A DNA stretch of 64,000 nucleotides from Patescibacteria group bacterium UBA926. Its GTDB lineage: Bacteria; Patescibacteriota; Doudnabacteria; UBA920. Within the stretch, counting starts at the first letter, position 1. Each line of letters opens with the position of its first letter. Below the pieces are notes generated by a model. That model had not been told where the DNA came from. It was given only the letters and a program-made list of their open reading frames with translations, and did no database searches. This document shows positions 1 to 16,251 of the stretch, in pieces. The stretch is from contig DBDS01000006.1 in assembly GCA_002293685.1 (NCBI GenBank), positions 20,187-84,186 on the forward strand, written 5' to 3'. Both the position numbers and the translations under genes were made by a program.

Positions 1-48
1 TCTGTATATTCTAGTTTACAAACTTTGCATTGATATGTGTCCATAGCT

Positions 49-516
49 TTATTCTAAATTCCATTTAAATGATCTTTCGGAAATGCCACCTACGTCCTTA
101 ACCTTTAATTCAATAAACTTTGGCGACGGCTGAATCGCATTAAATGTTAGAGTGCCTTCGCGGTGATGGCCACCTGGGCCCGGTCCTTCCCAAGCCGTCG
201 GCTGAAAAGTATTACCTGAATCATCTACTAACACCACTGCTTTAGTAGGGTCTTGATCTAAATCTCCGGAGTGGGTCGTAAACGATACAGTAAATTTCCA
301 GATTGGTTCGGCCTTGCTTAATGTTACCGGAGTCGCCTTAACTACAACGGGTTGCTGCTCATCTGTCTGTGTTTCCCACTGCTTTTGATTCGTCATTTGC
401 TGTTGCTGTGTCTGTTGTCGATCATCATCTACCTGATCATCTTTGTACACTACAAAGTAGTAGTACATCAGGAATACAAACGCCAAACCTATAATTATTA
501 ATCGCCAATATTTCAT
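49..516 (-). CDS. Hypothetical membrane-anchored secreted protein (N-terminal TM, His-rich GPGPGGHH motif); possible metal-binding partner, last gene of the metal operon
   Basis: N-terminal hydrophobic anchor; Gln/Asp-rich linker; C-terminal beta-rich domain with HSGD and GGHH motifs. 4-nt overlap with the upstream ORF suggests cotranscription in the csoR-led minus-strand operon. Confidence 0.45.
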   Translation of the reverse strand: MKYWRLIIIGLAFVFLMYYYFVVYKDDQVDDDRQQTQQQQMTNQKQWETQTDEQQPVVVKATPVTLSKAEPIWKFTVSFTTHSGDLDQDPTKAVVLVDDSGNTFQPTAWEGPGPGGHHREGTLTFNAIQPSPKFIELKVKDVGGISERSFKWNLE

Positions 517-953
517 ACGTGTGTTACTTTCCTAATTTTGTTAATCATGAAGATGATACCCGCAATATTAAATATTAGTCCTATCCAGAAGAATTGCGTC
601 TGGTATTGAGCGACAAAAGTAACTAGTCCAACAGTTCCAAGAATAGGTAAGATGTTTGTTAGATAGTGAGCGCAGCAAGATATCATAGCAGCGGTTGATG
701 TAGCACCCGTGACACCGAGCACTTTACCAGAACCTTGCCCATTAGCTATTAATTGCTTTAAATGAGTGTATAAGCTAATTTGAATACCGAATCCAATCGC
801 TAGGCTAATAACGAAATACCAATACTGTGCAAATTGATCTTTGGCAAATGGCCAGTCAGAGATAAGCCCTACAACGACAAAGTAGATAACTAGCATTATT
901 ATGCTCGCTAATAGTCCGTATAAGATTGATTTTTTTATACTCAGGTTAGTCAT
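513..953 (-). CDS. Polytopic membrane protein with an SCCAH motif, possibly metal-transport associated
   Basis: About 4 predicted TM helices. Conserved Cys-Cys-x-His motif. Tightly packed within the metal-homeostasis operon. Confidence 0.45.
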   Translation of the reverse strand: MTNLSIKKSILYGLLASIIMLVIYFVVVGLISDWPFAKDQFAQYWYFVISLAIGFGIQISLYTHLKQLIANGQGSGKVLGVTGATSTAAMISCCAHYLTNILPILGTVGLVTFVAQYQTQFFWIGLIFNIAGIIFMINKIRKVTHV

Positions 954-956
954 AAG

Positions 957-1142
957 TTAAATGTAAGCGCTTGGGTCTTCTTCAAATTGCCACTTGCAAT
1001 GGTCAGAGCAGAACTTGTAGGTTATTCCATCATGATCGTACGTAATATTATCAGTAGGTTTCATCCTACATACTGGATCTTTAGATGGTTTACCACTTTT
1101 TTCTTTAGGGTATTTTTTAAAGAATGAATTTAATATACTCAT
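957..1142 (-). CDS. YHS/TRASH-domain metal-binding protein
   Basis: DPVCRMKP...YKFCSDHCKWQFEEDP matches the YHS-domain Cys pattern (CxM...FCSxxC). 61 aa, as is typical for this family. Confidence 0.7.
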   Translation of the reverse strand: MSILNSFFKKYPKEKSGKPSKDPVCRMKPTDNITYDHDGITYKFCSDHCKWQFEEDPSAYI

Positions 1143-1154
1143 AACATGTTTTGT

Positions 1155-1403
1155 TTAATGATTATGGATATTTGATTTTCCATCAGGTTGAACTTTTTCA
1201 GTATCATCTTCCGGTTTATCACGGCCATGACCGAACATCATCAGGATATGAACCAGGACAAAGGCACCGATAAGTGCAAACCATCCCCAGCTTGAGACAA
1301 TATTACCAATTCTTCCTCCAAATAATAGGAGCGCAATCGGCAACAACAAGCAGCCAGCCATCATCATCCACATCATTTTCGAATTATGATTAGAATTATG
1401 CAT
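1155..1403 (-). CDS. DUF2933-like small membrane protein (often linked to copper ATPase loci)
   Basis: Met/His-rich N-terminus, two TM helices, charged C-terminal tail. Family assignment is by pattern recall only. Confidence 0.4.
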   Translation of the reverse strand: MHNSNHNSKMMWMMMAGCLLLPIALLLFGGRIGNIVSSWGWFALIGAFVLVHILMMFGHGRDKPEDDTEKVQPDGKSNIHNH

Positions 1404-1436
1404 GACGTGCCTTTCTTTATTAATAATTAAACTAAA

Positions 1437-1706
1437 TTAGGATCGCTCTATGATACTGGAATTATGCATCCAGACCATATAGGCTCCAAAGATCCATGAA
1501 AGCAGTGCTATCAATATTGCACCCCAAATGTAACTACCCAAACTTCCCCATGTGAACCAAGGCAAAGTCTCAAATAGGGTATGGTGTAGCTTAACTCCTT
1601 GCTCACTTCGGAGCGGTAAGTAACCACCTATTAAACAGAGCACATAAACTATTTCTGCACCGAGTATGCATTTTAGTGTATAGAGTCTTAAAGATAATTT
1701 TCCCAT
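1437..1706 (-). CDS. Small integral membrane protein
   Basis: Hydrophobic 89-aa ORF in an operonic position. Confidence 0.4.
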   Translation of the reverse strand: MGKLSLRLYTLKCILGAEIVYVLCLIGGYLPLRSEQGVKLHHTLFETLPWFTWGSLGSYIWGAILIALLSWIFGAYMVWMHNSSIIERS

Positions 1707-1724
1707 ACATTTAGAATTAGTTGA

Positions 1725-1946
1725 TTAAACAATCTCTCCACGTTTTTCGAGCATCATGTGGTGAATTGTTGCTAGTTGAAGCCATGTAGCTATGAGAATG
1801 AGTATTCCAGCACAGAGCAAGGCATCTATTTTTGTAACTCCCGCTACCAGATTGTCACCACCACCCAGGAGCGCACCAATAAATGTTATGACTCCTGCAA
1901 ACCCTACTATAACGCTTGTCACATGCATTAATTTTGAGAATTTCAT
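1725..1946 (-). CDS. Small integral membrane protein
   Basis: 73 aa with two TM helices, in an operonic position. Confidence 0.4.
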   Translation of the reverse strand: MKFSKLMHVTSVIVGFAGVITFIGALLGGGDNLVAGVTKIDALLCAGILILIATWLQLATIHHMMLEKRGEIV

Positions 1947-1963
1947 ATTTTTAAATTAATTGA

Positions 1964-2194
1964 TTAATTTTTGATCTCTTTTTCTGGAACGAGATTCATT
2001 CCGCATTCAGGGCAACTTCCAGCTTCGTCCTGTTTTATATTTGGATGCATCTCACAGGTGTAAGTAGTAGCAACGGATGATGTGTGATGATGAGCATCAT
2101 CACCTCCGCAACACCCATGAGAGGTTATATCTTTAGTCTCACAACATCCATGCGTGCAAGTACCATTTTGTGTGTGATTTATAGCGTGATTCAT
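1964..2194 (-). CDS. Heavy-metal-binding domain (HMBD) protein with a Cys/His-rich N-terminus
   Basis: The C-terminal YTCEMHPNI...AGSCPECGMNLVP matches the HMBD motif (YTCPMHPEI...PGxCPKCGM) found at N-termini of CusB and Cu-ATPases. The N-terminus is rich in HGCC and HHH. Confidence 0.7.
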   Translation of the reverse strand: MNHAINHTQNGTCTHGCCETKDITSHGCCGGDDAHHHTSSVATTYTCEMHPNIKQDEAGSCPECGMNLVPEKEIKN

Positions 2195-2199
2195 ATATT

Positions 2200-2481
2200 T
2201 TATTTATTTGATAAGGTATAAACTTTAATTAATTCCTTTATGGCCTTTTCGTCTTCACCCTTAGTTTGCATTTGGTGCTTAACATGGGTGCGAAGATGAT
2301 TTTCCAATAAGAACGTATCTAAGCTTTTGAGCGACCTTTGGATGGAGAGAGAGTCTTCTAGTAAGACAGGGCAATACTCTTCATTCTCAATAGCTTTGAT
2401 TAATCCCTCAGCTTGTCCTCTGATTATTTTGGCTCGATGAACTGCTCTTTTCTTAAGATTCTGATCTAGTGTGTGTTTCAT
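2200..2481 (-). CDS. csoR: CsoR/RcnR-family metal-sensing transcriptional repressor
   Basis: About 93 aa all-helical DUF156 pattern: RIxGQxxGLxKxIEN, a conserved Cys in YCPVLL, and a His near the C-terminus (HxxxH). It is the first gene of the metal operon. Confidence 0.75.
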   Translation of the reverse strand: MKHTLDQNLKKRAVHRAKIIRGQAEGLIKAIENEEYCPVLLEDSLSIQRSLKSLDTFLLENHLRTHVKHQMQTKGEDEKAIKELIKVYTLSNK

Positions 2482-2507
2482 AGTTATCCACAGCTTAATT
2501 ATATAGT

Positions 2508-2526
2508 CTATACCCCCATACCCTAT
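2508..2526 (-). promoter_or_regulatory. Candidate CsoR operator/promoter (C-tract ATACCCCCATACCCTAT) immediately upstream of csoR
   Basis: GGGTAT/ATACCC-type G/C tracts resemble known CsoR operators. Located about 30 bp upstream of the csoR start. Confidence 0.3.
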
Positions 2527-2594
2527 TTATACTACTATCTCCAAGAGGTGTCAAGTTAATGAAAAGGGTTATATAAATTAAGTAATTTTTCAAA

Positions 2595-2621
2595 TAAAAA
2601 ACCGGCCAAGACCGGTTTTTA
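2595..2621. terminator. Bidirectional rho-independent terminator (A-run, ACCGG-CCAAGA-CCGGT, T-run)
   Basis: Stem-loop flanked by A and T runs, directly after the stop of the 2625-3281 minus-strand gene. Confidence 0.6.
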
Positions 2622-2624
2622 GTA

Positions 2625-3281
2625 TTAAATTCCTAAATCTATAAATTGTGGGTGTATCACGCCAACTCTGGCTTTTAATCCAGTAGTTCCTGCTGGTACT
2701 TCGTAGATCACTACAAACGTTTTTGGAAGATTGGGCTGCAAGTTAGATAGCAAGAATAGGTCTGCACCTTCTGGTACCCATTCACTAACATCACTTGAGC
2801 TGGTGAACTCGCGATTTTGACTATCAACTAAAGTAGGGGTAGTGATGCTCGCTAAATCTTTACCTCGGTTCTCTATTGAGATTGTGAGTTGGATAAACTT
2901 ACCAGTAGAGGTTTTAGTCTTGGCGATTGTAGGATACCGAGAATCTTTGGCAAGCAAACTAGTTCCTCGATCTTTCACTTCATCAATTTGCCATACTACA
3001 TCTCCTGAGGGTACGACTTGTTTCACTGCGTAGACAGTGTCTTTTGTACTCCCGTTTTCAGAGCCATTGTTGTTACCGTCACCGCCATTGACGGCAATAA
3101 TTCCAATTAAAATAAAAAATCCAATAATTCCACCTAGAGTAGTTAGGACTTTATGACGCATGAACCAGTTACGCTGGTCAGTCTGACAATGGGGACACTT
3201 TTTTGCTTTGGCGTCTATTTCTTTTTGACACCCTTTGCATTTTTTCATAACGAGTTTTTTCTTTCCGCTAGCAGGTAACAT
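2625..3281 (-). CDS. Zinc-ribbon plus TM plus DUF4352-like extracellular domain protein
   Basis: N-terminal CxxC...CxxC zinc ribbon, one TM helix, a Gly/Asn linker and a beta-rich C-terminal domain resembling DUF4352 lipoprotein domains. The true start may be the internal MKKCKGC. Confidence 0.4.
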   Translation of the reverse strand: MLPASGKKKLVMKKCKGCQKEIDAKAKKCPHCQTDQRNWFMRHKVLTTLGGIIGFFILIGIIAVNGGDGNNNGSENGSTKDTVYAVKQVVPSGDVVWQIDEVKDRGTSLLAKDSRYPTIAKTKTSTGKFIQLTISIENRGKDLASITTPTLVDSQNREFTSSSDVSEWVPEGADLFLLSNLQPNLPKTFVVIYEVPAGTTGLKARVGVIHPQFIDLGI

Positions 3282-3487: not shown

Positions 3488-4825
3488 TTATGATTCCCTA
3501 CGTTCTGACTTAATTGAGACAACTTTGTCATTGAGTACAATTATGCCTTTTAAACAATTCAAGAATTCCCGTTTTTCTATATCGGATCCTTCTTGGAGTA
3601 TAAACTTGGCATAGTTCCTGATATCAATGTCTTGAACAACGATAGGAGTTTTAGTACCCAAAATTATCTGTTGAAACTTTTTATACCGCTTCACTTCTTG
3701 GCTAATTTTATCTTTTATCGGAATTAATTTAATATCTAATTTTTCGACCAAAGTTTGTAGTTGTTCTATCAGCTCAACTTCATTGATGTAGCCGGATTTA
3801 CAGTTAGCATCTCGGGATTTAGTACAACCATAGTAGACATGCCTATTAACAGAACCGTCTTTCAGTTTCTTAAACTTTTCATCGGCAGATATGCCTGAGC
3901 CGCAAAGACCGCAAGCCATCAGTTTGGTAAAGGCAAACTCTTTTGATTCTTGGCTTCTTAGTACCTGGCTTTTCATTTGAGCTTGTACTTCATCAAATAA
4001 CTCTTTGGTAATAATAGGTGTGTGTTTTCCAGTATACCAATTGCCGCTCTTTTTAGGATATTCAAAAACCCCATAATAGAATGGGGTTTGAAGTATCATA
4101 TAGACATTACTTAGTGTTAGATTTTTTTGACCGTAAGCGGTTTTGAAATTCAGATCAAATTTTAACCAATTGTATATTTTTCTACCGCTCCATTTTTCGT
4201 AAGCTACCTTTTCAAACATCTGCTTTATAATCGGCGCTCTATCAGGATCAACTAAGGTTTCGCATTTCCGATCCATCCGTTTTTCTTTTAAGTAACCAGT
4301 CGGAGCAGGTTCTGGCCATAATCCCATTTCTACTCTGGTTTTCAGTCCACGTTTTACATTGATACTTTTATTATCGTTTTCAAGTTTTGCCTGAGAACAG
4401 AGAATCATCAAGAGAAATTTTTCGTTCGGCGAATTTTTAAAATGCTGTCCGTATGTTCTAATTTCCAATAACTTTTTCTCGTCCATTAGATCCACTACTG
4501 ATCCAAGGTCACCCGCATTTCTACTCAACCGATCAGGTGCCCAGGTTAATATGCCGGTATACCTTCCAGATCTAACATCAGCCAAGATTTCTTTAAAAAC
4601 TGGCCTTTGGCCTGATTCTTTAGCTGAGTGAGATTCTCGCCTGATATCGACTATATCCAGATTCTCCTTATCAGCTATGGCTAGCATTTCCTTAACCTGG
4701 GAATCTATGGATAAGGCTTGCCGTTCGTCTGATTCGGTAGACTTCCGGGCGTATAGGCAATACTTAATCCGAGCAACCGGGGCAAGGGTTTCGGTGCTAA
4801 ATTGAGCTGTTTTATAGGTATCCAT
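3488..4825 (-). CDS. Large serine recombinase (phage integrase type)
   Basis: N-terminal resolvase catalytic domain (YARKSTESDE...SIDSQ, LDRLSR), central recombinase domain, and a C-terminal zinc ribbon (CGLCG...CTKSRDANC). Confidence 0.85.
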   Translation of the reverse strand: MDTYKTAQFSTETLAPVARIKYCLYARKSTESDERQALSIDSQVKEMLAIADKENLDIVDIRRESHSAKESGQRPVFKEILADVRSGRYTGILTWAPDRLSRNAGDLGSVVDLMDEKKLLEIRTYGQHFKNSPNEKFLLMILCSQAKLENDNKSINVKRGLKTRVEMGLWPEPAPTGYLKEKRMDRKCETLVDPDRAPIIKQMFEKVAYEKWSGRKIYNWLKFDLNFKTAYGQKNLTLSNVYMILQTPFYYGVFEYPKKSGNWYTGKHTPIITKELFDEVQAQMKSQVLRSQESKEFAFTKLMACGLCGSGISADEKFKKLKDGSVNRHVYYGCTKSRDANCKSGYINEVELIEQLQTLVEKLDIKLIPIKDKISQEVKRYKKFQQIILGTKTPIVVQDIDIRNYAKFILQEGSDIEKREFLNCLKGIIVLNDKVVSIKSERRES

Positions 4826-4905
4826 ATATAATTAATGCCAGAGATCATTAAGTTTGCTAAGGCCTCTTGTTGATAACTTTTTTAGCTAAAATTTAGCTAT
4901 TTCAG

Positions 4906-6477
4906 CTATTCCACATCAACGTAATCCCGATAGTAAAGCACATCATCATCACTGGGGATACCGCCGACCCACATCATGATTATGGTGCCATCGTCTGCGT
5001 GTTTCTCAAGTGTAGCGTTAATAAGAAGTGAAAAGGCGTCTGCAAGATCATCATGTTTTTCAACTCCAAAGCCTACAAGCTGCTCAATTAGCTTTTCACA
5101 GCCTTGCCGTGGAAACTTAATCAGACCAGACTTGATCGACATCGATGTAAGCGAAAGTCGGGTTCGCTTATCGCCCTTAGGCTTAATGGCTTCTGCTTCA
5201 ACTCCATGAAATTCCAGCATCTGGGGAAGTGCTTCTTGATAAGCTACGCTTTCAACAAATAACGTATCCTGCGAACCTTTCATCACAGTGCTTTTAACAT
5301 TTTTCATCAGATCGACCTGAGCCGGAAAGTTCAGCTTTTGCATTATGGGATTTGGCAGAATGTATATGCGTAACTTGTCACACCTGCTGTATACATGGGC
5401 AAAAACAACTGCTGTGAAATCAGCGGTGTCTTTTGAAGATATGGCAAGGTCAACTCCGGCGTATGTGCCCCGGTACCCTCTATGTTTGTCTCCCGGTAGC
5501 TCGTCATAGTATTGAATCCATTCGGGATATATTACTTGATCATCGCTTGGAATAATTCGAAGCAAATATTCTCGCTGCCACGATATTTCACTGGCAATTT
5601 TTAGTTTTTCTTCTTCAATTTCTTTAACAGTGGGGTACTTTCCCGGCCACAAGCAGTTGTCCTGCTCATCAAGTAATGGATATTGTTTGAACACACCAGA
5701 GGTCCGACTTTGGTTCACTTCTTCCTTAATCCGCATCAGTAGCGAGTCTTCGTGCAGCAGATTACCAACTATTATTAGTCTGCTAGTTCGATCACCGGCA
5801 GGCAAAACTTCGCCACGGAGCCAGTGATAAGTTTTTTCACGTCCTTCCCGGGTCTTAGTGGATTGTACATCTTCAACGTCATCACAAATAATGAGGTCAG
5901 GACGGTATTCATTATGGCGAAGTCCACGAATACTTTGGTCGGTAGAGGCAACTGTGATTCGCGCGCCGTGCTTGCTGAATACCAAAGAGTGCGAGCCCCA
6001 TTCATCACTTTCTTCTTGAAATGGTCCTAAATCGCGTTTGAGTAAGTCATTATCTTCCAGCTCGTTTCGAATGTTCATCATGTGCTGCTTGGCTTGGGCT
6101 TTAGTTTGGCAGAAAATTATGCAAAACTTTTTTTGCTGCTTCCCAAGTATCGACCAAATCGGATAGGCGGTGGTGACCATGGTTGACTTACCAGAGCCAC
6201 GGAATGCCACGATATACAGATTTTCGGTCGGACTTTTTTCGAGGTTGTGAATAATTTCCTTTTGGAAGTCCGCAGTTTCGTACTTCACATAATGGGCGTA
6301 GTAGAAGTGAAAGAAATACAAGAAACTGTCTTTTGTAATGGAAGTTCGCACTAAGCGATCCTTCATCATCCGGTTGACCAACTGGTCGTCAATTATTTTC
6401 ATCGGTTTTCCTTTCGTTAATTTTCTTAATGGACCTGGACTTTGTAATTGCCGCAAGTCGCAGGGCTTGGCGTACAA
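4906..6477 (-). CDS. Phage terminase large subunit (PBSX/XtmB-like)
   Basis: Walker A motif FRGSGKST, then an RNaseH-like nuclease C-terminal domain (AGVDLAIS...DFTAVV). The likely true start is the internal MKIIDD (about 6402), which would give only a short overlap with the upstream HTH gene. Confidence 0.6.
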   Translation of the reverse strand: MYAKPCDLRQLQSPGPLRKLTKGKPMKIIDDQLVNRMMKDRLVRTSITKDSFLYFFHFYYAHYVKYETADFQKEIIHNLEKSPTENLYIVAFRGSGKSTMVTTAYPIWSILGKQQKKFCIIFCQTKAQAKQHMMNIRNELEDNDLLKRDLGPFQEESDEWGSHSLVFSKHGARITVASTDQSIRGLRHNEYRPDLIICDDVEDVQSTKTREGREKTYHWLRGEVLPAGDRTSRLIIVGNLLHEDSLLMRIKEEVNQSRTSGVFKQYPLLDEQDNCLWPGKYPTVKEIEEEKLKIASEISWQREYLLRIIPSDDQVIYPEWIQYYDELPGDKHRGYRGTYAGVDLAISSKDTADFTAVVFAHVYSRCDKLRIYILPNPIMQKLNFPAQVDLMKNVKSTVMKGSQDTLFVESVAYQEALPQMLEFHGVEAEAIKPKGDKRTRLSLTSMSIKSGLIKFPRQGCEKLIEQLVGFGVEKHDDLADAFSLLINATLEKHADDGTIIMMWVGGIPSDDDVLYYRDYVDVE

Positions 6478-6850
6478 TTTTCGCTTGGGACGGCGTAAGA
6501 GCTTCGGATTCTTCTTTTGTAGTTACTTCAATCTTGTCTTTGTAATTGTCGTTTCGATGGCGCAGCCAGAAGCTAATCGCTGACCAGTTTTTTTCCTTGA
6601 TCAGAGTTAATAATTGGCTTTCGCTCATGTCATTAACCAAAGCGACACCTTCGGCTAAAGCCTTGTCCATTTTGCTTGCAAAAGTCTTATCTTCCTTGCG
6701 CCACCTGTACACGCTGTTTCTTGATATGCCTGTTTTTTCACAGGCGACTTGAACAATTGGCACTTTAGCCAATTCCTCAAAAAATTGGTTTTGCAGTTTA
6801 CTTTTCTTCATGGTGTTCGACTTTAGCCTTGATTCCGGTAAAGGACTCAA
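6389..6850 (-). CDS. HTH-domain protein, possible terminase small subunit
   Basis: HTH motif CEKTGISRNSVYRWRK near the N-terminus. Position immediately upstream of terL. Start probably at MKKSKL. Confidence 0.4.
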   Translation of the reverse strand: MSPLPESRLKSNTMKKSKLQNQFFEELAKVPIVQVACEKTGISRNSVYRWRKEDKTFASKMDKALAEGVALVNDMSESQLLTLIKEKNWSAISFWLRHRNDNYKDKIEVTTKEESEALTPSQAKIVRQALRLAAITKSRSIKKINERKTDENN

Positions 6851-8081
6851 AGCGTTTAATGATTAAGTCACAAAATTTCGGCTCGAGTTCACAGCCGTAC
6901 ACCTTTCGACCAAGCTGGTGTCCAGCCAAAAGTGTACTTCCAGAGCCTAGAAAGCTGTCCAAAATAATTTCACCGGGCATAGTGCAACGCTTTATCGCTT
7001 TCTCGTGGAGCGTTACAGGCTTAGACGTGGCATGTTCGTACTCCTTGGAGGGAAGCCGTTTTGCCGTCCAGACATCGATAAATTCGTTCACCTGTGCCAT
7101 TAGTTCGTTTCCGGTACCCATTTCCTTATTCATGACCTCGTTTAAGTCGGTTACAGCTTCGGCAAGGTATGGTTTGCCACGAACACCGTAAACCGCAGGT
7201 TCATAGACCTTATTGAAGGCAACCTTGGGTACTGGATTTTGGTTATTCTTGAGCCACAGGCAAACACGCTTGTTGCTTACGCCAAGCGATCGATAGATAT
7301 CTTGAATTACACCAATATAGATCTGGTCGCAGTAGTAGAACACATGCGTACTTGGGTGTGACACTTCCAAGGCGGCTTTTAAGCTGTCATGGATAAAGTT
7401 TCGATATTCTTCGAATGTGCGTTTATCATTCACATTACCGCCATAGTCCTGTTTGCCACCAATACCGCCGTCATAATCAATTTCTAGGTTATATACGGGA
7501 TCAGAATAAATCATTGACACTCGTTCCGATCCAAGCAGACGGTTAAGCGTTTCTTGCTTGGTGGAATCGCCACAGATAACTTTGTGGTTGCCAAGCGTGA
7601 TAATGTCGCCGAGTTTAGTTTTAGGCGTTTTGATTTTCTTTATCTCTTTGTCTACGTCGAACTGATCCGGTTTAACCTCAACTTCTTCGTCCCAGAATTT
7701 AGCGAGCTGAATTTGGTCAAAGCCGGAATCGAGCAATATATTCAGATCAAAGGATTTTAATGCTTCAAAATCCCAGTTACCGCCCAAGGCATTACTGGAG
7801 ATTAAATATTGCTTGGCTTCATCGTCGGTTAGCTTTCGGTTCGGTACCCGCACATCGATCAGCTCATTGCCACGGCCGAGGAGTTGTAGGGCTTTGATTC
7901 GCTGGTGGCCAGCTAAGATTTTTCCATTCAAATCGATTGCCGGAATTTCCACGATATTAAATTTCTTCAAGCTACGCTTGAGGTCCGACATCTGTTTGTC
8001 GGTGATAATTCGAGGGTTTACCTCTTGGGGGATCAGGTCATTGATCCGTTTTTGCACAGTGTGCCATTGTAGTTTTTGCAT
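6798..8081 (-). CDS. ParB-like nuclease N-terminal domain fused to a beta-class N6-adenine/N4-cytosine DNA methyltransferase
   Basis: ParBc motif (IPAIDLNG...GHQRIKA). MTase motif IV SDPVYN (DPPY-like) precedes motif I (ILDSFLGSGST), which is the beta-class order. Confidence 0.8.
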   Translation of the reverse strand: MQKLQWHTVQKRINDLIPQEVNPRIITDKQMSDLKRSLKKFNIVEIPAIDLNGKILAGHQRIKALQLLGRGNELIDVRVPNRKLTDDEAKQYLISSNALGGNWDFEALKSFDLNILLDSGFDQIQLAKFWDEEVEVKPDQFDVDKEIKKIKTPKTKLGDIITLGNHKVICGDSTKQETLNRLLGSERVSMIYSDPVYNLEIDYDGGIGGKQDYGGNVNDKRTFEEYRNFIHDSLKAALEVSHPSTHVFYYCDQIYIGVIQDIYRSLGVSNKRVCLWLKNNQNPVPKVAFNKVYEPAVYGVRGKPYLAEAVTDLNEVMNKEMGTGNELMAQVNEFIDVWTAKRLPSKEYEHATSKPVTLHEKAIKRCTMPGEIILDSFLGSGSTLLAGHQLGRKVYGCELEPKFCDLIIKRFESFTGIKAKVEHHEEK

Positions 8082-8249
8082 ACATTTATTGCTTAATTGT
8101 TTAAAATGTATGGATAAACAAAAAGCCTATTCCACACACGAAATAGCTGAAGTTAAAAACTTCGCACTATTTCTTGCGCGGAATAGGCATGGCTTTTGAG
8201 GCGATACGCTATTCTACTTTTTACTACGCAGAAATTTTACACTTAAATT

Positions 8250-8666
8250 TTAACTCTCTGGATTGTTTTTTGCAATCCCACGCAGAATTCTTTTGCCGTT
8301 GACGCTTGCTAGAAACTCAATCGTGTCCTTGCCAGCCAGTATCGGGATTTGGTGTGGAAGCTCCAATAGAACCTTGTAGCCGTTCTTTTCTTCTTCCATG
8401 ACCATTTTCACGAATTCTGGATCTTTCTTCATCATGTCTATCAGTACTGTCTTGCTTTCGGGGGAGGAGGTAGTAGGCTCGGCATAGCTGATTGAGCCAA
8501 AAATGCGACCCGGCTTCATGGATTTGAAGGCCTGTCTTACTTTCTTGCCTATGGACAAGGTAGGCTGTTTATGGGAAGTATGCAGTGTTATATCAGTTAT
8601 CCGGATTGTCTTGTATCTCTGGCCTTGCCTAGGCACGAATGGATTTAGTCGTAATTCGTACTCCAT
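8250..8666 (-). CDS. Hypothetical phage protein, first gene of the leftward (cro-side) transcript
   Basis: ORF divergent from the cI-like repressor across an 87-bp switch-like intergenic region. Confidence 0.4.
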   Translation of the reverse strand: MEYELRLNPFVPRQGQRYKTIRITDITLHTSHKQPTLSIGKKVRQAFKSMKPGRIFGSISYAEPTTSSPESKTVLIDMMKKDPEFVKMVMEEEKNGYKVLLELPHQIPILAGKDTIEFLASVNGKRILRGIAKNNPES

Positions 8667-8753
8667 ATCTCGATTGTAGCATGCAGGTGTAAAATGTCAA
8701 ATAATTATACACTAGGGCTTGCAAAGCCCGGTTATTTATGCTAAGTTGGATTT

Positions 8754-9398
8754 ATGAATAGAATACAACAGCAACTTTTAGACCTCATCGCTAATAACGA
8801 GAACTTGGGCAAATTAAGCCTTAGGAAGATAGCAGAGCTGGTCGGAGCCAAAAACAAGCCCCAGACAGCCAAATACCACCTCCAGCAGCTTGAAAAGGAC
8901 GGCTTGATCCAAATGAACCTAGAAGAGGGGGTCATAAAGCTGGTTAAGAAAGGGTTTAATAAGGCTAATATCAGCCCAATATATTCGGTTCCAGTGGTTG
9001 GAGCCGCTAATTGTGGACCAGCAACCATATTTGCCGAGCAGAATATTGAGCAGTACCTAAAGGTGTCCTCCAAGTTGCTCCCAAGAAATAAAAGCGGTCT
9101 TTACTCGATTGTCGCTGACGGTCCTTCGATGAATAAAGCAGAAGTCGAACCGGGCAAGACTATCGAAAGTGGAGACTTTGTTCTGGTTGATAGCGAATAC
9201 ACTAACTACAAAAATGGCGACATTGTGGTTGCGGTCATAGACGGAATGGCGACTATTAAGCGGTACAGGTATGACAAGACGCATAACCGTATTGTTCTCG
9301 AAGCTGATTCCACCGAAAAATATTTGCCAATCTTTATACACCAAGGTGACGATTTTCTCCTGAGTGGAAAAGTCGTCGGCATTATCAAAAATAATTAA
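8754..9398 (+). CDS. Phage cI/LexA-like repressor (wHTH plus S24 peptidase domain)
   Basis: N-terminal HTH (LRKIAELVGAKNKPQTAKYHLQQLEKDGLI). C-terminal S24 autopeptidase with Ser in GPSM and Lys in TIKRY. Confidence 0.8.
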   Translation: MNRIQQQLLDLIANNENLGKLSLRKIAELVGAKNKPQTAKYHLQQLEKDGLIQMNLEEGVIKLVKKGFNKANISPIYSVPVVGAANCGPATIFAEQNIEQYLKVSSKLLPRNKSGLYSIVADGPSMNKAEVEPGKTIESGDFVLVDSEYTNYKNGDIVVAVIDGMATIKRYRYDKTHNRIVLEADSTEKYLPIFIHQGDDFLLSGKVVGIIKNN

Positions 9399-9409
9399 GT
9401 ACTAAACTA

Positions 9410-9781
9410 ATGAAAAGAATATTTATAGCGTTTGCGATTGAAGATGTCCGATCTAGAGATTTTTTAGTTGGACAGGCAAAAAATGACAATTCACCATTTG
9501 AATTTGTGGACATGTCTGTAAAAAAACCTTGGGAAACAGACTGGGAAGCGAAATGTCGAGTAAAAATCAGAGGTTGTGATGGTATGATTGCGCTGATAAG
9601 CAAGTATACCCCGACTGCTACCGGAGAGTTATTCGAAATAACTACGGCAGAGGAAGAAAAAGTTCCTACTATGTTAATGTATTCAAGTAGTGATAGGCCA
9701 TCCTTACCTTACCCACTCAACAAAAGGCTTGTAAACATCTGGAGCTGGCCTAATATTAAGTCATTTCTTAATCGATTATAA
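9410..9781 (+). CDS. TIR-like domain protein (ThsB/DUF1863-like)
   Basis: The N-terminal MKRIFIAFAIEDVRSRDFL matches the ThsB/TIR-like signature (KRVFFSFHYQDV...). A flavodoxin-like alternating pattern and a conserved Glu (GELFEI) follow. The gene starts 11 nt after the repressor stop. Confidence 0.6.
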   Translation: MKRIFIAFAIEDVRSRDFLVGQAKNDNSPFEFVDMSVKKPWETDWEAKCRVKIRGCDGMIALISKYTPTATGELFEITTAEEEKVPTMLMYSSSDRPSLPYPLNKRLVNIWSWPNIKSFLNRL

Positions 9782-9782
9782 A

Positions 9783-10724
9783 ATGAGAAAAGCACTTGTA
9801 ATTGGAATTAATGATTATCCTGCCGCCCCATTGACTGGGTGCATTAACGATGCGTCTGCTTTTGCGAACACAATAGAAAAAAATGGAGACGGCTCTCCAA
9901 ATTTTTCAGTAAGACTGGAAACTGATGTACCTACCAAAGCCCAGCTTAAAACCATGATTAAAGAGTTGTTTGATGGTCCTAATGATATATCGTTGCTATA
10001 CTTCTCTGGACATGGTTTTTTAAACGAACTTGGCGGATATATTGTTACGCCGGATTATCAGGAGAATGACGAAGGGGTTTCAATGGATGAAATTTTGACT
10101 ATTGCAAATCAGTCAAAAGCAAAAGATAAAGTTATTATCCTAGACTGTTGTCACTCTGGCGTTTTTGGCTCACCTGCTTTATCAGGCAATGTTTCCGCTC
10201 AGATTTTTGAAGGCGTTGTAGTTTTAACAGCAAGTCGTCCGACCGAAAGCGCAATCGAAGTAAATGGTCACGGAATTTTTACAAATTTATTAATCGATGC
10301 ATTACAGGGAGGAGCTGCGGATCTACGAGGTCACATAACTCCTGGTAGTGTATACGCATATATTGATCAGGCATTAGGAGCTTGGGACCAGAGGCCTGTA
10401 TTTAAAACGAATGTGACTCGATTTACTTCTTTGCGTACTGTAACTCCGCAAGTTCCTACGGAGGTTCTTAGAAAAATAACTGAATACTTTCCTACTGCAG
10501 AGGAAGAGCATGCATTGGATCCTACATACGAATTTGATAATAAAGAAATAGCTATTCCTGAAAAAGTTGCCATAATGAAGGACTTGCAAAAATTTGTCAG
10601 TATAGGATTGGTAGTACCTGTTGGGGAAGAACATATGTACTATGCTGCGCAAAATTCTAAATCTTGCAAGTTGACTGCACTTGGCTATCACTATTGGCGT
10701 TTAGTTAAGGAAAATAAGCTTTAG
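9783..10724 (+). CDS. Caspase/metacaspase-like (peptidase C14) protease with an unknown C-terminal domain of about 130 aa
   Basis: KALVIGINDY...LTGCINDA start, catalytic His in YFSGHGF and catalytic Cys in ILDCCHSG. The ATG lies 2 nt after the TIR gene stop, indicating translational coupling. Confidence 0.8.
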   Translation: MRKALVIGINDYPAAPLTGCINDASAFANTIEKNGDGSPNFSVRLETDVPTKAQLKTMIKELFDGPNDISLLYFSGHGFLNELGGYIVTPDYQENDEGVSMDEILTIANQSKAKDKVIILDCCHSGVFGSPALSGNVSAQIFEGVVVLTASRPTESAIEVNGHGIFTNLLIDALQGGAADLRGHITPGSVYAYIDQALGAWDQRPVFKTNVTRFTSLRTVTPQVPTEVLRKITEYFPTAEEEHALDPTYEFDNKEIAIPEKVAIMKDLQKFVSIGLVVPVGEEHMYYAAQNSKSCKLTALGYHYWRLVKENKL

Positions 10725-10732
10725 AAAGAAAT

Positions 10733-10758
10733 ATAGTTACACGCCCGTGTAACTATAT
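10733..10758 (+). terminator. Perfect 12-bp palindrome (TATAGTTACACG cc CGTGTAACTATA) just after the caspase gene stop; terminator or protein-binding site
   Basis: Seen directly in the sequence, 9 nt after the stop codon. A T-run follows about 20 nt later. Confidence 0.4.
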
Positions 10759-10930
10759 AACCCTAATCTGTGTCACTTTTGTCATTTTTTGAAGGTGCTC
10801 GAGACCCGTCGATTCTGTTATAATAAAAACACTTAGAAAAGCCTTACAGGGCTTGACCGAACCACGGTTCTAGCTCGAAGAGGCCAGCCACAAGACTTTT
10901 TTATCGTGTGACCTAGATGGGTCAATAAAG

Positions 10931-10954
10931 ATCGCCTGATGGGCGATTTTTTTT
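10931..10954 (+). terminator. Rho-independent terminator (ATCGCC-TGAT-GGCGAT followed by T8)
   Basis: Canonical stem-loop plus U-tract. It ends an ORF-free ~170-nt stretch (10790-10954) that may be a small RNA. Confidence 0.55.
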
Positions 10955-11023
10955 GTTATTTCAATTTTTTCGAATGAGCGCAACTTTTAACTTAATCTCT
11001 GATAAAAATGGTATAATAAAATT

Positions 11024-12433
11024 ATGAGAATTATGAAGTACTTAGCATTATTTTTGCTATCCATATCTTTTAGTATCCCTCAACTAGCCGTTGCTGCTGA
11101 CCCACCAATTCTTCATCTGAAATTCGATGACGGAACTGGAACTGCACCGATTGATAGTAGTGCCAACAATGTCACCACTTCATTCACAGCCACACAACCA
11201 ACTTGGTCGGAAACCGTTGCTCCCGTGGCCTTTAGCAACCCTTATTCACTTGATTTTACAGGTTTAAATGATGGTGTGAACGTTGCTTGGCCAACTGAAT
11301 TAGATTTCGCCAGCACTGATCCGCGTACTTTTTCCTTTTGGTACAGGCCAACAGCTAATGGTGAAGGGCAGTATTCAAGAATTATCAGCTGGAGTAATGA
11401 CCGTTTGGAAATTGCAGGCACAGAAGCCGGACCAACCACACACAAGATTACATACTTTGACGGGAATTGGCACGCTACAGACATTACTTTAACTTTGAAT
11501 ACTTGGTATCACGTTACTTTCACTTATGATGGAACAACCGCTAAGTTTTATATTGGTGATGAGTTGCAAGACGAGCACCCATTAGCTGGCCGTTCATTAA
11601 GTGGAACATTAATGATTGGTAATAGAGTTCAAGATGGTAATGAAGGTATAAATGGACAGATTGATGACGTTCGGATTTATGATTATGCGCTCAACGAAAC
11701 TCAAGTAGCTAATCTTGCTGCTGGTTCAAATGACCCTGATTCTGCACCAGATACAACTCCACCGATTATCTCTTCTTTAACGGCAAACAGCATTACCAGC
11801 TCAGGAGCTACTATTACTTGGACTACTGATGACCCTTCTTCCACAAAAGTTATATACTCTATAGATACTTCCTACGGAAATTCCACCTCGGAAACTAACA
11901 CTGTTACTAGGGTGACTAGTCACTCTACCAACCTTACAGGTTTGTTAGCTTGCACGACTTATAATTATAAGGCCGTCTCGGTTAATGCGGCTAGTGGTTC
12001 AACTACATCTTCTGCTAGTAGTTTTACCACCACTGGCTGTGCTTCAAGAAGTAGCAGTGGTTCAATTGTGGCGAAATTCGTTTGTAAAGATGCCTCTGCG
12101 CTTAACTATTCTAACTTCGGTAGGCATAATCAGGATTTATGTAAGTATCAGACTGTCTCAACTTTGCTCATAACCCCAATAGCCAGTCCTGTAAGCATTG
12201 TTAGGAATTTATTCTATGGTGTAAGCGGGGAAGATGTTAAGAAGCTACAATCAGTACTTATCGGCGAAGGTTTTACTATCCCTGCTGGTGTAACTGGATT
12301 CTTCTATTCGCAGACTCAATCTGCTTTGCGTGAGTTTCAAAAAAAGCACGGTATTACTCCGTCCATCGGTTACTTTGGTCCTATTACTCGAGAAAAAATG
12401 AAGTCTTTGAACATTAATGGTCTTTGGTGGTGA
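11024..12433 (+). CDS. Secreted LamG-like (ConA-like lectin) plus fibronectin-III plus PG_binding_1 domain protein
   Basis: Signal peptide. LamG-like jelly-roll segment (SFWYRP...YHVTFTYDGTTAKFYIGD). Ser/Thr-rich FN3-like segment. C-terminal peptidoglycan-binding repeat (DVKKLQSVLIGEGF...FQKKHGITPSIGYFGPITREKM). Confidence 0.6.
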   Translation: MRIMKYLALFLLSISFSIPQLAVAADPPILHLKFDDGTGTAPIDSSANNVTTSFTATQPTWSETVAPVAFSNPYSLDFTGLNDGVNVAWPTELDFASTDPRTFSFWYRPTANGEGQYSRIISWSNDRLEIAGTEAGPTTHKITYFDGNWHATDITLTLNTWYHVTFTYDGTTAKFYIGDELQDEHPLAGRSLSGTLMIGNRVQDGNEGINGQIDDVRIYDYALNETQVANLAAGSNDPDSAPDTTPPIISSLTANSITSSGATITWTTDDPSSTKVIYSIDTSYGNSTSETNTVTRVTSHSTNLTGLLACTTYNYKAVSVNAASGSTTSSASSFTTTGCASRSSSGSIVAKFVCKDASALNYSNFGRHNQDLCKYQTVSTLLITPIASPVSIVRNLFYGVSGEDVKKLQSVLIGEGFTIPAGVTGFFYSQTQSALREFQKKHGITPSIGYFGPITREKMKSLNINGLWW

Positions 12434-15159: not shown

Positions 15160-15771
15160 ATGAAAAATCTTCATGAAGCTTTAGAGCGTTATCGTGCAGT
15201 GGCAATCTTTGTTGCTTTAGTTGCTTTGGTCTCAGTGTTATTTATCTCAATTTGTTATTCGGCAAGAACTGTTTTCCGTCAGCAAGCTAATGACCCTCAA
15301 ATTGAAGTCACAGAACAAGTAGCGGGAATTGTCCGCCAGGGCGTACCAATCGATGCAATCGTTAGTAGCGCAGAACAAATTGACTTGAACTCTAGCAAGG
15401 CATTGTTCGTGATGATTTTCGACAACGAGCGATCTTTGGCTGGATCTTCTGCACAACTTAATGGAGAAGCTCCTTCAGTTCCTTCTGAAGTGTTCGATAA
15501 AACAAACGAGATGGGTGAGTATCGATTTGATTTCGAACCATCTGAAAGCTTAAAGTTCGCTGGAGTAATGAAGAAAATTGATGATAGCGCTTACGTATTA
15601 GCGGGTCGTTCACTTTCTGAGATGGAAACTAGGGCAGCTGCTCTCGAACAACCATTATGGATTGGTTGGATAATTTCAGTGTTACTATCTTTATTACTTA
15701 CTGCATTACTTAGACCAAGCACAAACATCGCAATTGTAGAAGAAACAAATGTGACTGTAATCGAAGATTAA
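15160..15771 (+). CDS. Hypothetical membrane-anchored protein
   Basis: N-terminal TM helix and a second C-terminal TM helix. No recognisable domain. Confidence 0.4.
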   Translation: MKNLHEALERYRAVAIFVALVALVSVLFISICYSARTVFRQQANDPQIEVTEQVAGIVRQGVPIDAIVSSAEQIDLNSSKALFVMIFDNERSLAGSSAQLNGEAPSVPSEVFDKTNEMGEYRFDFEPSESLKFAGVMKKIDDSAYVLAGRSLSEMETRAAALEQPLWIGWIISVLLSLLLTALLRPSTNIAIVEETNVTVIED

Positions 15772-15789
15772 AGTTAACTTTCATTTCGC

Positions 15790-16251
15790 ATGACAAAACG
15801 GCGACTTCGAATCATTGAGTTCTTAATCATCGGAATTGGTCTCGGTGTGTTTGAAGATTTACTAGCTATTGTTTTAGCTACAGACGCAACAATCAATTTT
15901 CAAATATTATTGGGTGTTGTTGCCGTAGCTGTACCGTTTGCGTTTATAAGTGAAGTGATTGTGGATCACCCAAAATTTTGGGAGAAGATAATCCCGGGTC
16001 TAGCTAGACGAAACGAAGACGCTGTTTCAAAAAAGCGATTGCGAATCCTTGAATTTCTTGTTGTAGGTATTGGTATGGGAATCACGGAAGATTTACTAGC
16101 TGTTCATTTAGCAACAGGCACAAGTCTTAGTGCCGACGTTCTAATTATAGTAGTCGCAGTTGCAATTCCGTTTGCGTTCATTAGCGAGATGGTTGTTGAT
16201 CATCCACGTTTTTGGCAAAATATCTTTCCGAAGCTTAAAAAAATTGCATAA
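15790..16251 (+). CDS. Membrane protein made of two tandem ~70-aa repeats
   Basis: KRRLRIIEFLIIGIGLGVFEDLLAIVLAT...FAFISEVIVDHPKFW is repeated as KKRLRILEFLVVGIGMGITEDLLAVHLAT...FAFISEMVVDHPRFW. Confidence 0.5.
   Translation: MTKRRLRIIEFLIIGIGLGVFEDLLAIVLATDATINFQILLGVVAVAVPFAFISEVIVDHPKFWEKIIPGLARRNEDAVSKKRLRILEFLVVGIGMGITEDLLAVHLATGTSLSADVLIIVVAVAIPFAFISEMVVDHPRFWQNIFPKLKKIA

Follow-up and report, generated by a model that had tools for sequence, protein, structure and literature searches.

A probable type IV Thoeris pair carried as cargo of a compact phage-derived element in a Patescibacteria genome

Introduction

Type IV Thoeris was described from two gene pairs, PsTIR with PsCaspase from Pseudomonas sp. 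1-7 and EcTIR with EcCaspase from Escherichia coli 328 (Rousset et al., 2024, bioRxiv 10.1101/2024.10.24.620036). In these systems the TIR protein yields N7-cADPR, a cyclic ADP-ribose, upon infection, and this molecule activates a caspase-like protease that is promiscuous and arginine-specific, the outcome being abortive infection (Rousset et al., 2024). Defence was abolished by each of the substitutions E79Q in PsTIR and C129A in PsCaspase; both the Ps and the Ec system protect against phage T6, and the E. coli 328 operon is slightly toxic when induced (Rousset et al., 2024). The validated Pseudomonas system comprises two genes that overlap at a stop/start TGATG junction, and Table S1 of the same work, which includes an "additional TIR" column, lists Parcubacteria and Nomurabacteria genomes as type IV Thoeris (Rousset et al., 2024). 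Different Thoeris types use different signals, and a paper from 2026 reported a phage sponge, TadIV-1, for type IV Thoeris and an activation that depends on a capsid vertex protein. Phage T4 carries TadIV-1. The work of Rousset and colleagues also came out in Science in 2025. Here, a gene pair that codes for a short protein with a TIR domain and for a caspase-like protease is examined in a 64,000-nucleotide stretch of DNA from Patescibacteria group bacterium UBA926 (GenBank assembly GCA_002293685.1, contig DBDS01000006.1, positions 20,187 to 84,186 of the forward strand). This whole stretch is referred to as the window, and coordinates are those of the window unless they are preceded by the label of another locus (L001 and so on).

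Very probably, the locus is best explained as a type IV Thoeris pair that travels as cargo of a compact, phage-derived element, behind a LexA-like repressor. In the literature, nothing was found that ties LexA-type regulators to type IV Thoeris and no study of Thoeris in Patescibacteria was found; the three papers that name both mention Patescibacteria once each.

Identity of the TIR and caspase-like proteins

The two genes of the pair are as follows.

9410..9781, plus strand: ThsB-type TIR-domain protein of 123 aa, assigned to type IV Thoeris from its AlphaFold (AF2) model, Foldseek search and homology to PsTIR; predicted catalytic Glu, E76
9783..10724, plus strand: caspase-like effector of 313 aa; C14 domain at about residues 1-185 (H77, C123) and conserved C-terminal domain at about 186-313, the presumed signal sensor

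An earlier reading of this DNA, made from its letters alone (hereafter the original prediction), had delineated these two genes together with a preceding S24-type repressor gene. All three open reading frames (ORFs) were located on the plus strand at the coordinates it gave, 8754-9398 (214 aa), 9410-9781 and 9783-10724, and the first two are separated by the 11 nt it reported. A small correction applies to the junction of the pair, for which a spacing of 2 nt had been given: the TIR stop codon occupies 9779-9781 and the caspase ATG starts at 9783 in a different reading frame, leaving 1 nt between them.

By profile alone the TIR protein is weakly recognized, with Pfam matches to ThsB_TIR at E=0.22, which is below threshold, and to Nuc_deoxyrib_tr at E=0.098, no match among the PADLOC (2023) or NCBIfam profiles, and no match in a sequence search of the PDB. 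Since these profiles are sub-threshold, a TIR assignment needed independent support from structure and from direct comparison. Many homologs of the protein at about 60% identity have a precomputed match to PF08937 (ThsB_TIR), and an alignment of 66 homologs contains 21 invariant columns that include E11 and E76. The AF2 model built from this alignment has a mean predicted local distance difference test score (pLDDT) of 85 and a predicted template modelling score of 0.80, and its best Foldseek matches in the PDB are all TIR domains (E values of 2e-6 to 1e-3), among them a Bacillus cereus TIR (8fz9; E=2e-6, template modelling score 0.75), SPARTA TIR-APAZ, EcThsB2, MyD88, and SARM1. When compared with the validated PsTIR, as translated from the cloned sequences in Table S2 of Rousset et al. 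(2024), the window TIR is 37% identical (E=4e-30; residues 2-123 versus 5-123), and E76 falls on the catalytic E79. The fold search and the homology to a validated protein show the 123-aa product to be a genuine TIR; the TIR-like call of the original prediction, sub-threshold in Pfam, was thus upheld by the AF2 fold and by PsTIR.

The effector is more readily recognized. Residues 1-181 of the 313-aa protein match Peptidase_C14 in Pfam (4.6e-20), the protein matches the PADLOC "caspase" model (5.8e-23), and a model of it (pLDDT 70) retrieves the MALT1 paracaspase, caspases 1, 7, and 11, and metacaspases with Foldseek. H77, in the motif FSGHG, and C123, in DCCHSG, are both invariant across 51 homologs. 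The caspase call made from the sequence, together with its intact His/Cys dyad, agrees with profile and fold searches alike. The same alignment contains many invariant residues between about 183 and 307, and this region is therefore a real conserved domain rather than a spacer, as the original prediction had anticipated in setting apart a C-terminal domain of about 130 aa. The protein also has a CHAT match, below threshold (E=4.8e-4), in the region covered by the C14 match.

Reference effectors were obtained through the partner genes. A gene that is 100% identical to the 399 nt of EcTIR is present in 14 complete E. coli genomes, and in E. coli 165 its neighbour is annotated as a "caspase family protein"; a second reference was a plasmid-borne caspase of P. 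aeruginosa, which stands beside a TIR that is 70% identical to PsTIR. The window effector is 43% identical to the E. coli 165 protein (E=2e-91), over residues 1-313 versus 1-321 and so with the C-terminal domain included, and 47% identical to the P. aeruginosa protein (E=6e-102, reference residues 1-327). These alignments extend to residue 313 or 310 of the window effector, C123 is aligned with the Cys of both homologs, and the motifs QRPVFKTN, LDP.YE, and C.LT.LG are common to all three proteins. The first nine codons of PsCaspase, given in Table S2 of Rousset et al. (2024), read MRKALVVGI, which is the family consensus.

Genes of other systems that employ related domains were sought around the pair. 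No SIR2-SLOG or Macro-domain ThsA effector of type I/II Thoeris is present among the ORFs neighbouring the pair, these being the S24 repressor next to the TIR gene and a LamG/peptidoglycan-binding protein next to the caspase gene, and the lack of such a partner that had been noted from the sequence is borne out by the identities of these ORFs. Gasdermin, CD-NTase, and SAVED-CHAT/Cas genes were absent within several kb on either side. The locus shares with type I/II Thoeris a ThsB-type TIR as sensor and signal generator and differs from them in lacking a SIR2, SLOG, or Macro protein and in having a caspase-like protease as effector.

Conservation of the pair and relation to type IV Thoeris

A neighbourhood scan of species-representative genomes yielded 80 loci in which a homolog of the effector is present at full length (51-84% identity); these loci span Patescibacteria, Bacteroidota, Bacillota, Pseudomonadota, Acidobacteriota, and archaea. 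A TIR gene adjoins the effector homolog in 70 of the 80, which is the outcome of the neighbourhood check that the original prediction had suggested; the TIR is of the PsTIR type in 57, of the EcTIR type in 23, and of both types in 10. Two loci, in Algoriphagus faecimaris DSM 23095 (L016) and Photobacterium ganghwense (L030), belong to strains that are listed in Table S1 of Rousset et al. (2024), and the partner TIR of the former is 76% identical to PsTIR. Three-gene variants were also encountered, in which a PsTIR-type TIR and a caspase are followed by an EcTIR/ThsB-type TIR (L001:6946-7350, L091:10946-11353, and L096:9945-10352). These variants fit the "additional TIR" column of Table S1, and the window copy is without a second TIR.

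By all criteria open to sequence and structure, the window pair is type IV Thoeris. With the described system it shares a two-gene operon in which the gene of a short TIR precedes that of a caspase-like protease whose C-terminal domain is of unknown fold, the retention of the catalytic Glu, His, and Cys, homology over the full length of both proteins, and horizontal spread across phyla, including Parcubacteria. The differences are the 37% identity of the TIR, the LexA-like S24 repressor 11 nt ahead of the pair, and carriage on a small element that has serine integrase and terminase genes. The original prediction had proposed an undescribed, unnamed defence system; given that both proteins are full-length homologs of validated components and that strains of Table S1 are among the loci, that claim is wrong, the system having been published already as type IV Thoeris. 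The pair consequently fits a known class of immunity and opens no new one. The logic that had been proposed for it, in which a TIR-made signal is sensed by a caspase effector through its C-terminal domain and leads to abortive infection, matches that demonstrated for type IV Thoeris. The folds, catalytic residues, homology to validated proteins, adjacency, and element structure are established by sequence and comparison. The window copy is a divergent, Patescibacteria-lineage member whose TIR lies under the standard Pfam threshold, and it may aid in building better detection profiles.

On the basis of homology to the studied systems, phage infection would be sensed by the short TIR protein, and E76 of this protein would convert nicotinamide adenine dinucleotide (NAD+) to a cyclic ADP-ribose signal, which in the studied system is N7-cADPR. 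The caspase-like protein would then bind the signal in its conserved C-terminal domain, its H77/C123 protease would thereby be switched on, many cellular proteins would be cut, and infection would be aborted. The pair is probably transcribed together with the repressor from a leaderless promoter, and expression of the defence would then coincide with quiescence of the element, as in the cI-rexAB operon of phage lambda. In this scheme we infer the identity of the signal, the specificity of the protease, cotranscription, the targets of the repressor, and the anti-phage phenotype.

The LexA-like repressor and the divergent promoter region

The gene that precedes the pair and the DNA upstream of it contain the following features.

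8754..9398, plus strand: LexA-like autocleaving repressor with winged helix-turn-helix (HTH) and Peptidase_S24; predicted cleavage at C87-G88, catalytic dyad S125/K169
8719..8747, plus strand: putative rightward promoter, TTGCAA-17 nt-TAAGTT, which ends 6 nt before the S24 ATG and implies a leaderless mRNA
8673..8700, minus strand: leftward sigma-70-like promoter, TTGACA-16 nt-TG-TACAAT, with 11 of 12 consensus positions and an extended -10, serving the leftward operon (orf138, methyltransferase, TerS, TerL, integrase)
8687..8702, no strand assigned: conserved 16-mer GTGTAAAATGTCAAAT, a candidate operator that overlaps the leftward -35 box

The 214-aa protein matches Peptidase_S24 (6.5e-18) and a winged HTH in Pfam and can be aligned over its whole length with structures of E. 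coli LexA, and its score against the lexA model TIGR00498 is 86 bits, under the equivalog cutoff of 110.95. C87-G88 stands at the position of the Ala-Gly cleavage site of LexA, and S125 (in GPSM) and K169 (in TIKRY) stand at the catalytic positions. Cleavage at a Cys-Gly bond is familiar from UmuD. In a profile search of all loci, an S24 gene was found beside the pair in 7 of the 80 genome loci and was missing from the other 73 and from both validated systems. Once further contexts from the close clade were added, linkage of S24 to the pair was found in 13 independent loci (the window, L001, L002/L089, L003, L004, L006, L008, L017, L091, L093, L094, L095, and L096), in which the effector is at least 66% identical to that of the window and most of which are labelled Patescibacteria. 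The linkage is kept while the flanks of the S24 gene vary from locus to locus, and the gene is therefore not a fixed host lexA; identity with the host LexA was rejected on this ground, and the protein is LexA-like and moves with the element.

The divergent intergenic region measures 87 nt (8667-8753). The 16-mer GTGTAAAATGTCAAAT is identical in L004, L008, and L144 and near-identical in L091 and L093, and the intergenic DNA that surrounds it has diverged. The rightward promoter was not called by a consensus scan; its geometry recurs as TTGCAA-17-TATACT-6-ATG in L004 and as TTGCGC-17-TATATT-8-ATG in L008. The gaps of 11 nt and 1 nt make cotranscription of S24, TIR, and caspase likely.

The arrangement resembles lambda cI-rexAB in that an autocleavable S24-family repressor is directly followed, on the same strand, by an abortive-infection module, that a strong divergent promoter serves the other genes of the window element, and that the repressor transcript is probably leaderless. 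The lambda cI mRNA from PRM is leaderless. The differences are that the defence proteins are unrelated, that the window carrier is without structural genes, and that for the window cotranscription is predicted from the spacing of the genes.

The carrier element and its cargo

Leftward of the repressor, five genes lie on the minus strand.

8250..8666, minus strand: orf138, first gene of the leftward operon; no family matches; conserved in L002, L008, L141, and L144
6798..8081, minus strand: ParB-like domain fused to an N6/N4 DNA methyltransferase (N6_N4_Mtase 1.6e-31; phrog_498 3.9e-82; ParB-like phrog_620 3e-22)
6389..6850, minus strand: terminase small subunit-like (TerS) HTH protein (phrog_4044 5.5e-11; weak HTH and Sf6_terminase Pfam matches)
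4906..6477, minus strand: terminase large subunit-like (TerL) protein (phrog_38 9e-80; weak Terminase_6N and Terminase_6C matches)
3488..4825, minus strand: large serine recombinase (integrase), located at the element's left end (Resolvase 6.7e-20, Recombinase 8e-15, Zn_ribbon_recom; phrog_95 integrase 1e-59)

The block that extends from the integrase to the Thoeris pair recurs in nine other loci with unrelated sequence on both flanks, and a mobile unit of about 7.4 kb, at about 3.4-10.8 kb of the window, is therefore bracketed. Copies of the element (window 3488-10790) were recognized in L001, L004, L006, L008, L089, L093-L096, and L141-L146, and related copies occur on IMG/VR contigs. Capsid, portal, tail, and lysis genes were found neither in the window element nor in any other copy, and structural phage genes are also absent from the source contig beyond the integrase. 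A complete temperate prophage was accordingly rejected, since an integrase, TerL, TerS, and a repressor are present and structural and lysis genes are in no copy; the "prophage" of the original prediction is more aptly called a compact integrative element that encodes terminase and carries defence genes, and from its gene content this element could be a satellite or a stripped-down prophage. The original prediction had also placed the pair in a moron slot cotranscribed with a lysogeny repressor, of which the linked and probably cotranscribed repressor and the phage-derived flanking genes stand and the complete prophage with capsid genes does not.

The slot behind the S24 gene can hold other cargo. 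In L142 (3582-5560, minus strand) it contains a PsTIR-type TIR, a ThsB_TIR protein, and the octameric membrane protein 8xMP, without a caspase, and in L096 (9945-10853) ThsB_TIR and 8xMP follow the TIR-caspase pair; ThsB and 8xMP may constitute a separate TIR-based system with a membrane effector. A second cargo hotspot is present between TerL and the integrase in longer copies of the element. It holds a reverse transcriptase and a type III-like restriction-modification system in L142 (9579-17144) and a type I restriction-modification system in L146 (5931-13755), in which the CBASS effector Cap15 (15207-15824) lies just beyond the integrase.

Phage satellites (PICI, P4-like, PICMI) are similar in being small integrative elements with an integrase, a repressor, one or more packaging genes, and defence cargo at fixed hotspots, and window-type elements are likewise inserted at different chromosomal sites. 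The window element differs in having both TerS and TerL, a ParB-methylase, and a large serine recombinase, in its Patescibacteria-type hosts, and in being known from genes alone. With somewhat less than even confidence, an undescribed family of capsid-less Patescibacteria elements of about 7-16 kb is tentatively proposed, with a serine integrase, TerL, TerS, a ParB-methylase, an SOS-type S24 repressor, type IV Thoeris as swappable cargo, two hotspots for defence cargo, and a conserved terminal block of about 60 bp, whose members would be satellites or packaging-competent defence islands that co-express their cargo from the repressor transcript. The mobile elements and phage-host biology of ultra-small bacteria are poorly known, and here a recurrent element moves type IV Thoeris, TIR-ThsB-8xMP, restriction-modification, and reverse transcriptase genes between them. 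What interest remains in the locus comes from the coupling to a LexA-like repressor, which is specific to this lineage, and from a compact carrier with exchangeable cargo and a conserved terminal block.

Strong effector homologs are present on 35 IMG/VR contigs, and carriage of type IV Thoeris by phages is common. In E. coli 165 (L081, chromosome 3886579-3887956), the validated E. coli-type system is situated in a lambdoid prophage, with the lambda-family holin/lysis genes on one side and the antiterminator gene Q on the other, a holin-Q location that is a classic moron position.

Alternative explanations

Several observations weigh against the assignment to type IV Thoeris on a repressor-linked element. 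At just 37% identity to PsTIR, the window TIR could produce a signal molecule that is not exactly the same. The model of the effector C-terminal domain is of moderate confidence (pLDDT of about 50-79), sequence and fold searches of the PDB returned generic metacaspase, MALT1, and caspase matches and no solved type IV effector, and the effector comparison was made with the E. coli partner and the Pseudomonas plasmid homolog rather than with the full PsCaspase. The Patescibacteria copies are known from sequence alone. As for cotranscription of the repressor with the pair, promoter-like matches in the region are no commoner than in shuffled sequence.

The divergence of the TIR also bears on an alternative in which TIR and caspase have the same ancestry as type IV Thoeris and work differently, through another ADP-ribose-derived signal or through direct TIR-caspase contact. 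The low identity, the fact that Thoeris types differ in their signals, and the pairing of this caspase family with TIRs of at least two very different types (PsTIR-like and EcTIR-like), sometimes both at one locus, would allow for it. However, the C-terminal domain of the effector is strongly conserved (43-47% identity to the proteobacterial effectors, with the motif QRPVFKTN), which argues for a conserved ligand, and the Ps and Ec systems both protect against T6; a different working is thus regarded as improbable. Still less credit, to the point of being negligible, can be given to the suggestion in the original prediction that the two ORFs are a single TIR-caspase fusion split by a frameshift, whether in a pseudogene or by sequencing error. 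The different frames and the single-nucleotide gap brought it to mind, but the 120 closest caspase homologs are all 312-329 aa long, the TIR homologs measure about 123 aa, two genes (TGATG) likewise make up the validated Pseudomonas system, and two adjacent genes are found in 70 of the 80 genomes. From the homolog lengths and the two-gene validated system, a split fusion was therefore rejected.

Two further alternatives concern the role of the pair on its element. The S24 protein could be a dedicated, DNA damage-responsive regulator of the Thoeris pair, comparable to CapH/CapP or BrxR/CapW, and not primarily the repressor of the element, in which case cleavage stimulated by RecA* would raise TIR-caspase expression during infection. 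S24-TIR-caspase arrays without integrase or terminase in L091 (among mraZ, ftsI, murE, and cmk) and in L003 (beside a photolyase) are in keeping with such a role, as is the linkage that S24 keeps to the pair while its flanks vary and its cleavage-site and Ser/Lys residues stay intact. Yet L091 and L003 could be decayed elements, and in 10 of the 13 loci S24 lies at the integrase/terminase operon's divergent promoter, where an element repressor is classically located. Moreover, the same S24 slot holds other cargo in L142 (TIR, ThsB, and 8xMP, no caspase) and in L141, and S24 is missing from 73 of the 80 genomes that have the system and from both validated systems, so that a dedicated regulator is possible and, in our judgement, rather doubtful. 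It is very improbable that the pair is mainly an addiction, stabilization, or inter-element competition module and not a host anti-phage defence. Its constant location in the cargo slot of a mobile element beside the element repressor and the slight toxicity of the E. coli 328 operon on induction would suit such a module, but homologous systems protect against phage in a way that requires their catalytic residues, and this slot and the second one carry classical defence genes (restriction-modification, reverse transcriptase, Cap15), in keeping with a cargo of defence genes. Type IV Thoeris as cargo of a compact phage-derived element remains the preferred reading of the locus.

The palindrome, the terminal block, and the flanks of the element

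Two features mark the distal end of the cargo slot.

10731..10758, no strand assigned: palindrome, read either as 12-bp arms around a 4-nt loop or as 13-bp arms around a 2-nt loop
10769..10790, no strand assigned: terminal motif TGTGTCACTTTTGTCA(C/T)TTTTT, almost invariant, about 14 nt downstream of the inverted repeat

The perfect 12-bp palindrome that the original prediction noticed after the operon is real, and it is the best-formed copy of a conserved inverted repeat, AGT(T/G)ACA-N6-TGTAA(C/T)T. Together with the terminal motif it forms a block of about 60 bp (10731-10790), AGTKACA-N6-TGTAAYT followed by TGTGTCACTTTTGTCACTTTTT, in which the 7-mer TGTMACT occurs three times in direct and once in inverted orientation. 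The block is found once per element, distal to the cargo whatever that cargo is, in at least 10 independent copies, and similarity ends just past it (sites were aligned from the window, L001, L003, L004, L089, L093-L096, L141, and L142); in unrelated loci the relaxed palindrome pattern has a background of about 0.014 per kb. In L004 a serine-integrase gene borders on the block with its 3' end, as is expected if the block adjoins the phage-type attachment site (attP) in a circular form. The terminal motif is probably at or beside the right end (att) of the element. No second copy of it was found near the integrase, a direct-repeat search for att sites gave nothing convincing, and a search for an empty site via the downstream LamG gene returned the same arrangement only.

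A structure-selected RNA hairpin or terminator was rejected for the palindrome, given that stem covariation does not exceed that of shuffles (99 of 500 reach the observed score) and that no T-run follows on the plus strand. Since covariation is at the level of shuffles and 6 of 11 sequences leave one core position unpaired, the palindrome looks like a protein-recognition site, for the integrase, terminase, or repressor, at the terminus of the element rather than a structure-selected terminator. An Rfam scan of 8000-11200 gave no meaningful match.

The G+C composition does not distinguish the island from its flanks. On the right, a secreted 469-aa protein with Laminin_G_3, fn3-like, and PG_binding_1 domains (11024-12433) is followed by housekeeping-type genes; this LamG protein has no homolog beside other copies of the element and is therefore host flank. 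On the left, a copper/metal-resistance cluster lies directly past the integrase (window 1-3281 and beyond; L083:7236-17447) and encodes a CsoR-like repressor (2200-2481), HMBD, YHS, DsbD, and thioredoxin-fold proteins, a P-type ATPase, and a multicopper oxidase. At 10927-10951 there is a hairpin that resembles a conventional terminator and has a T-run.

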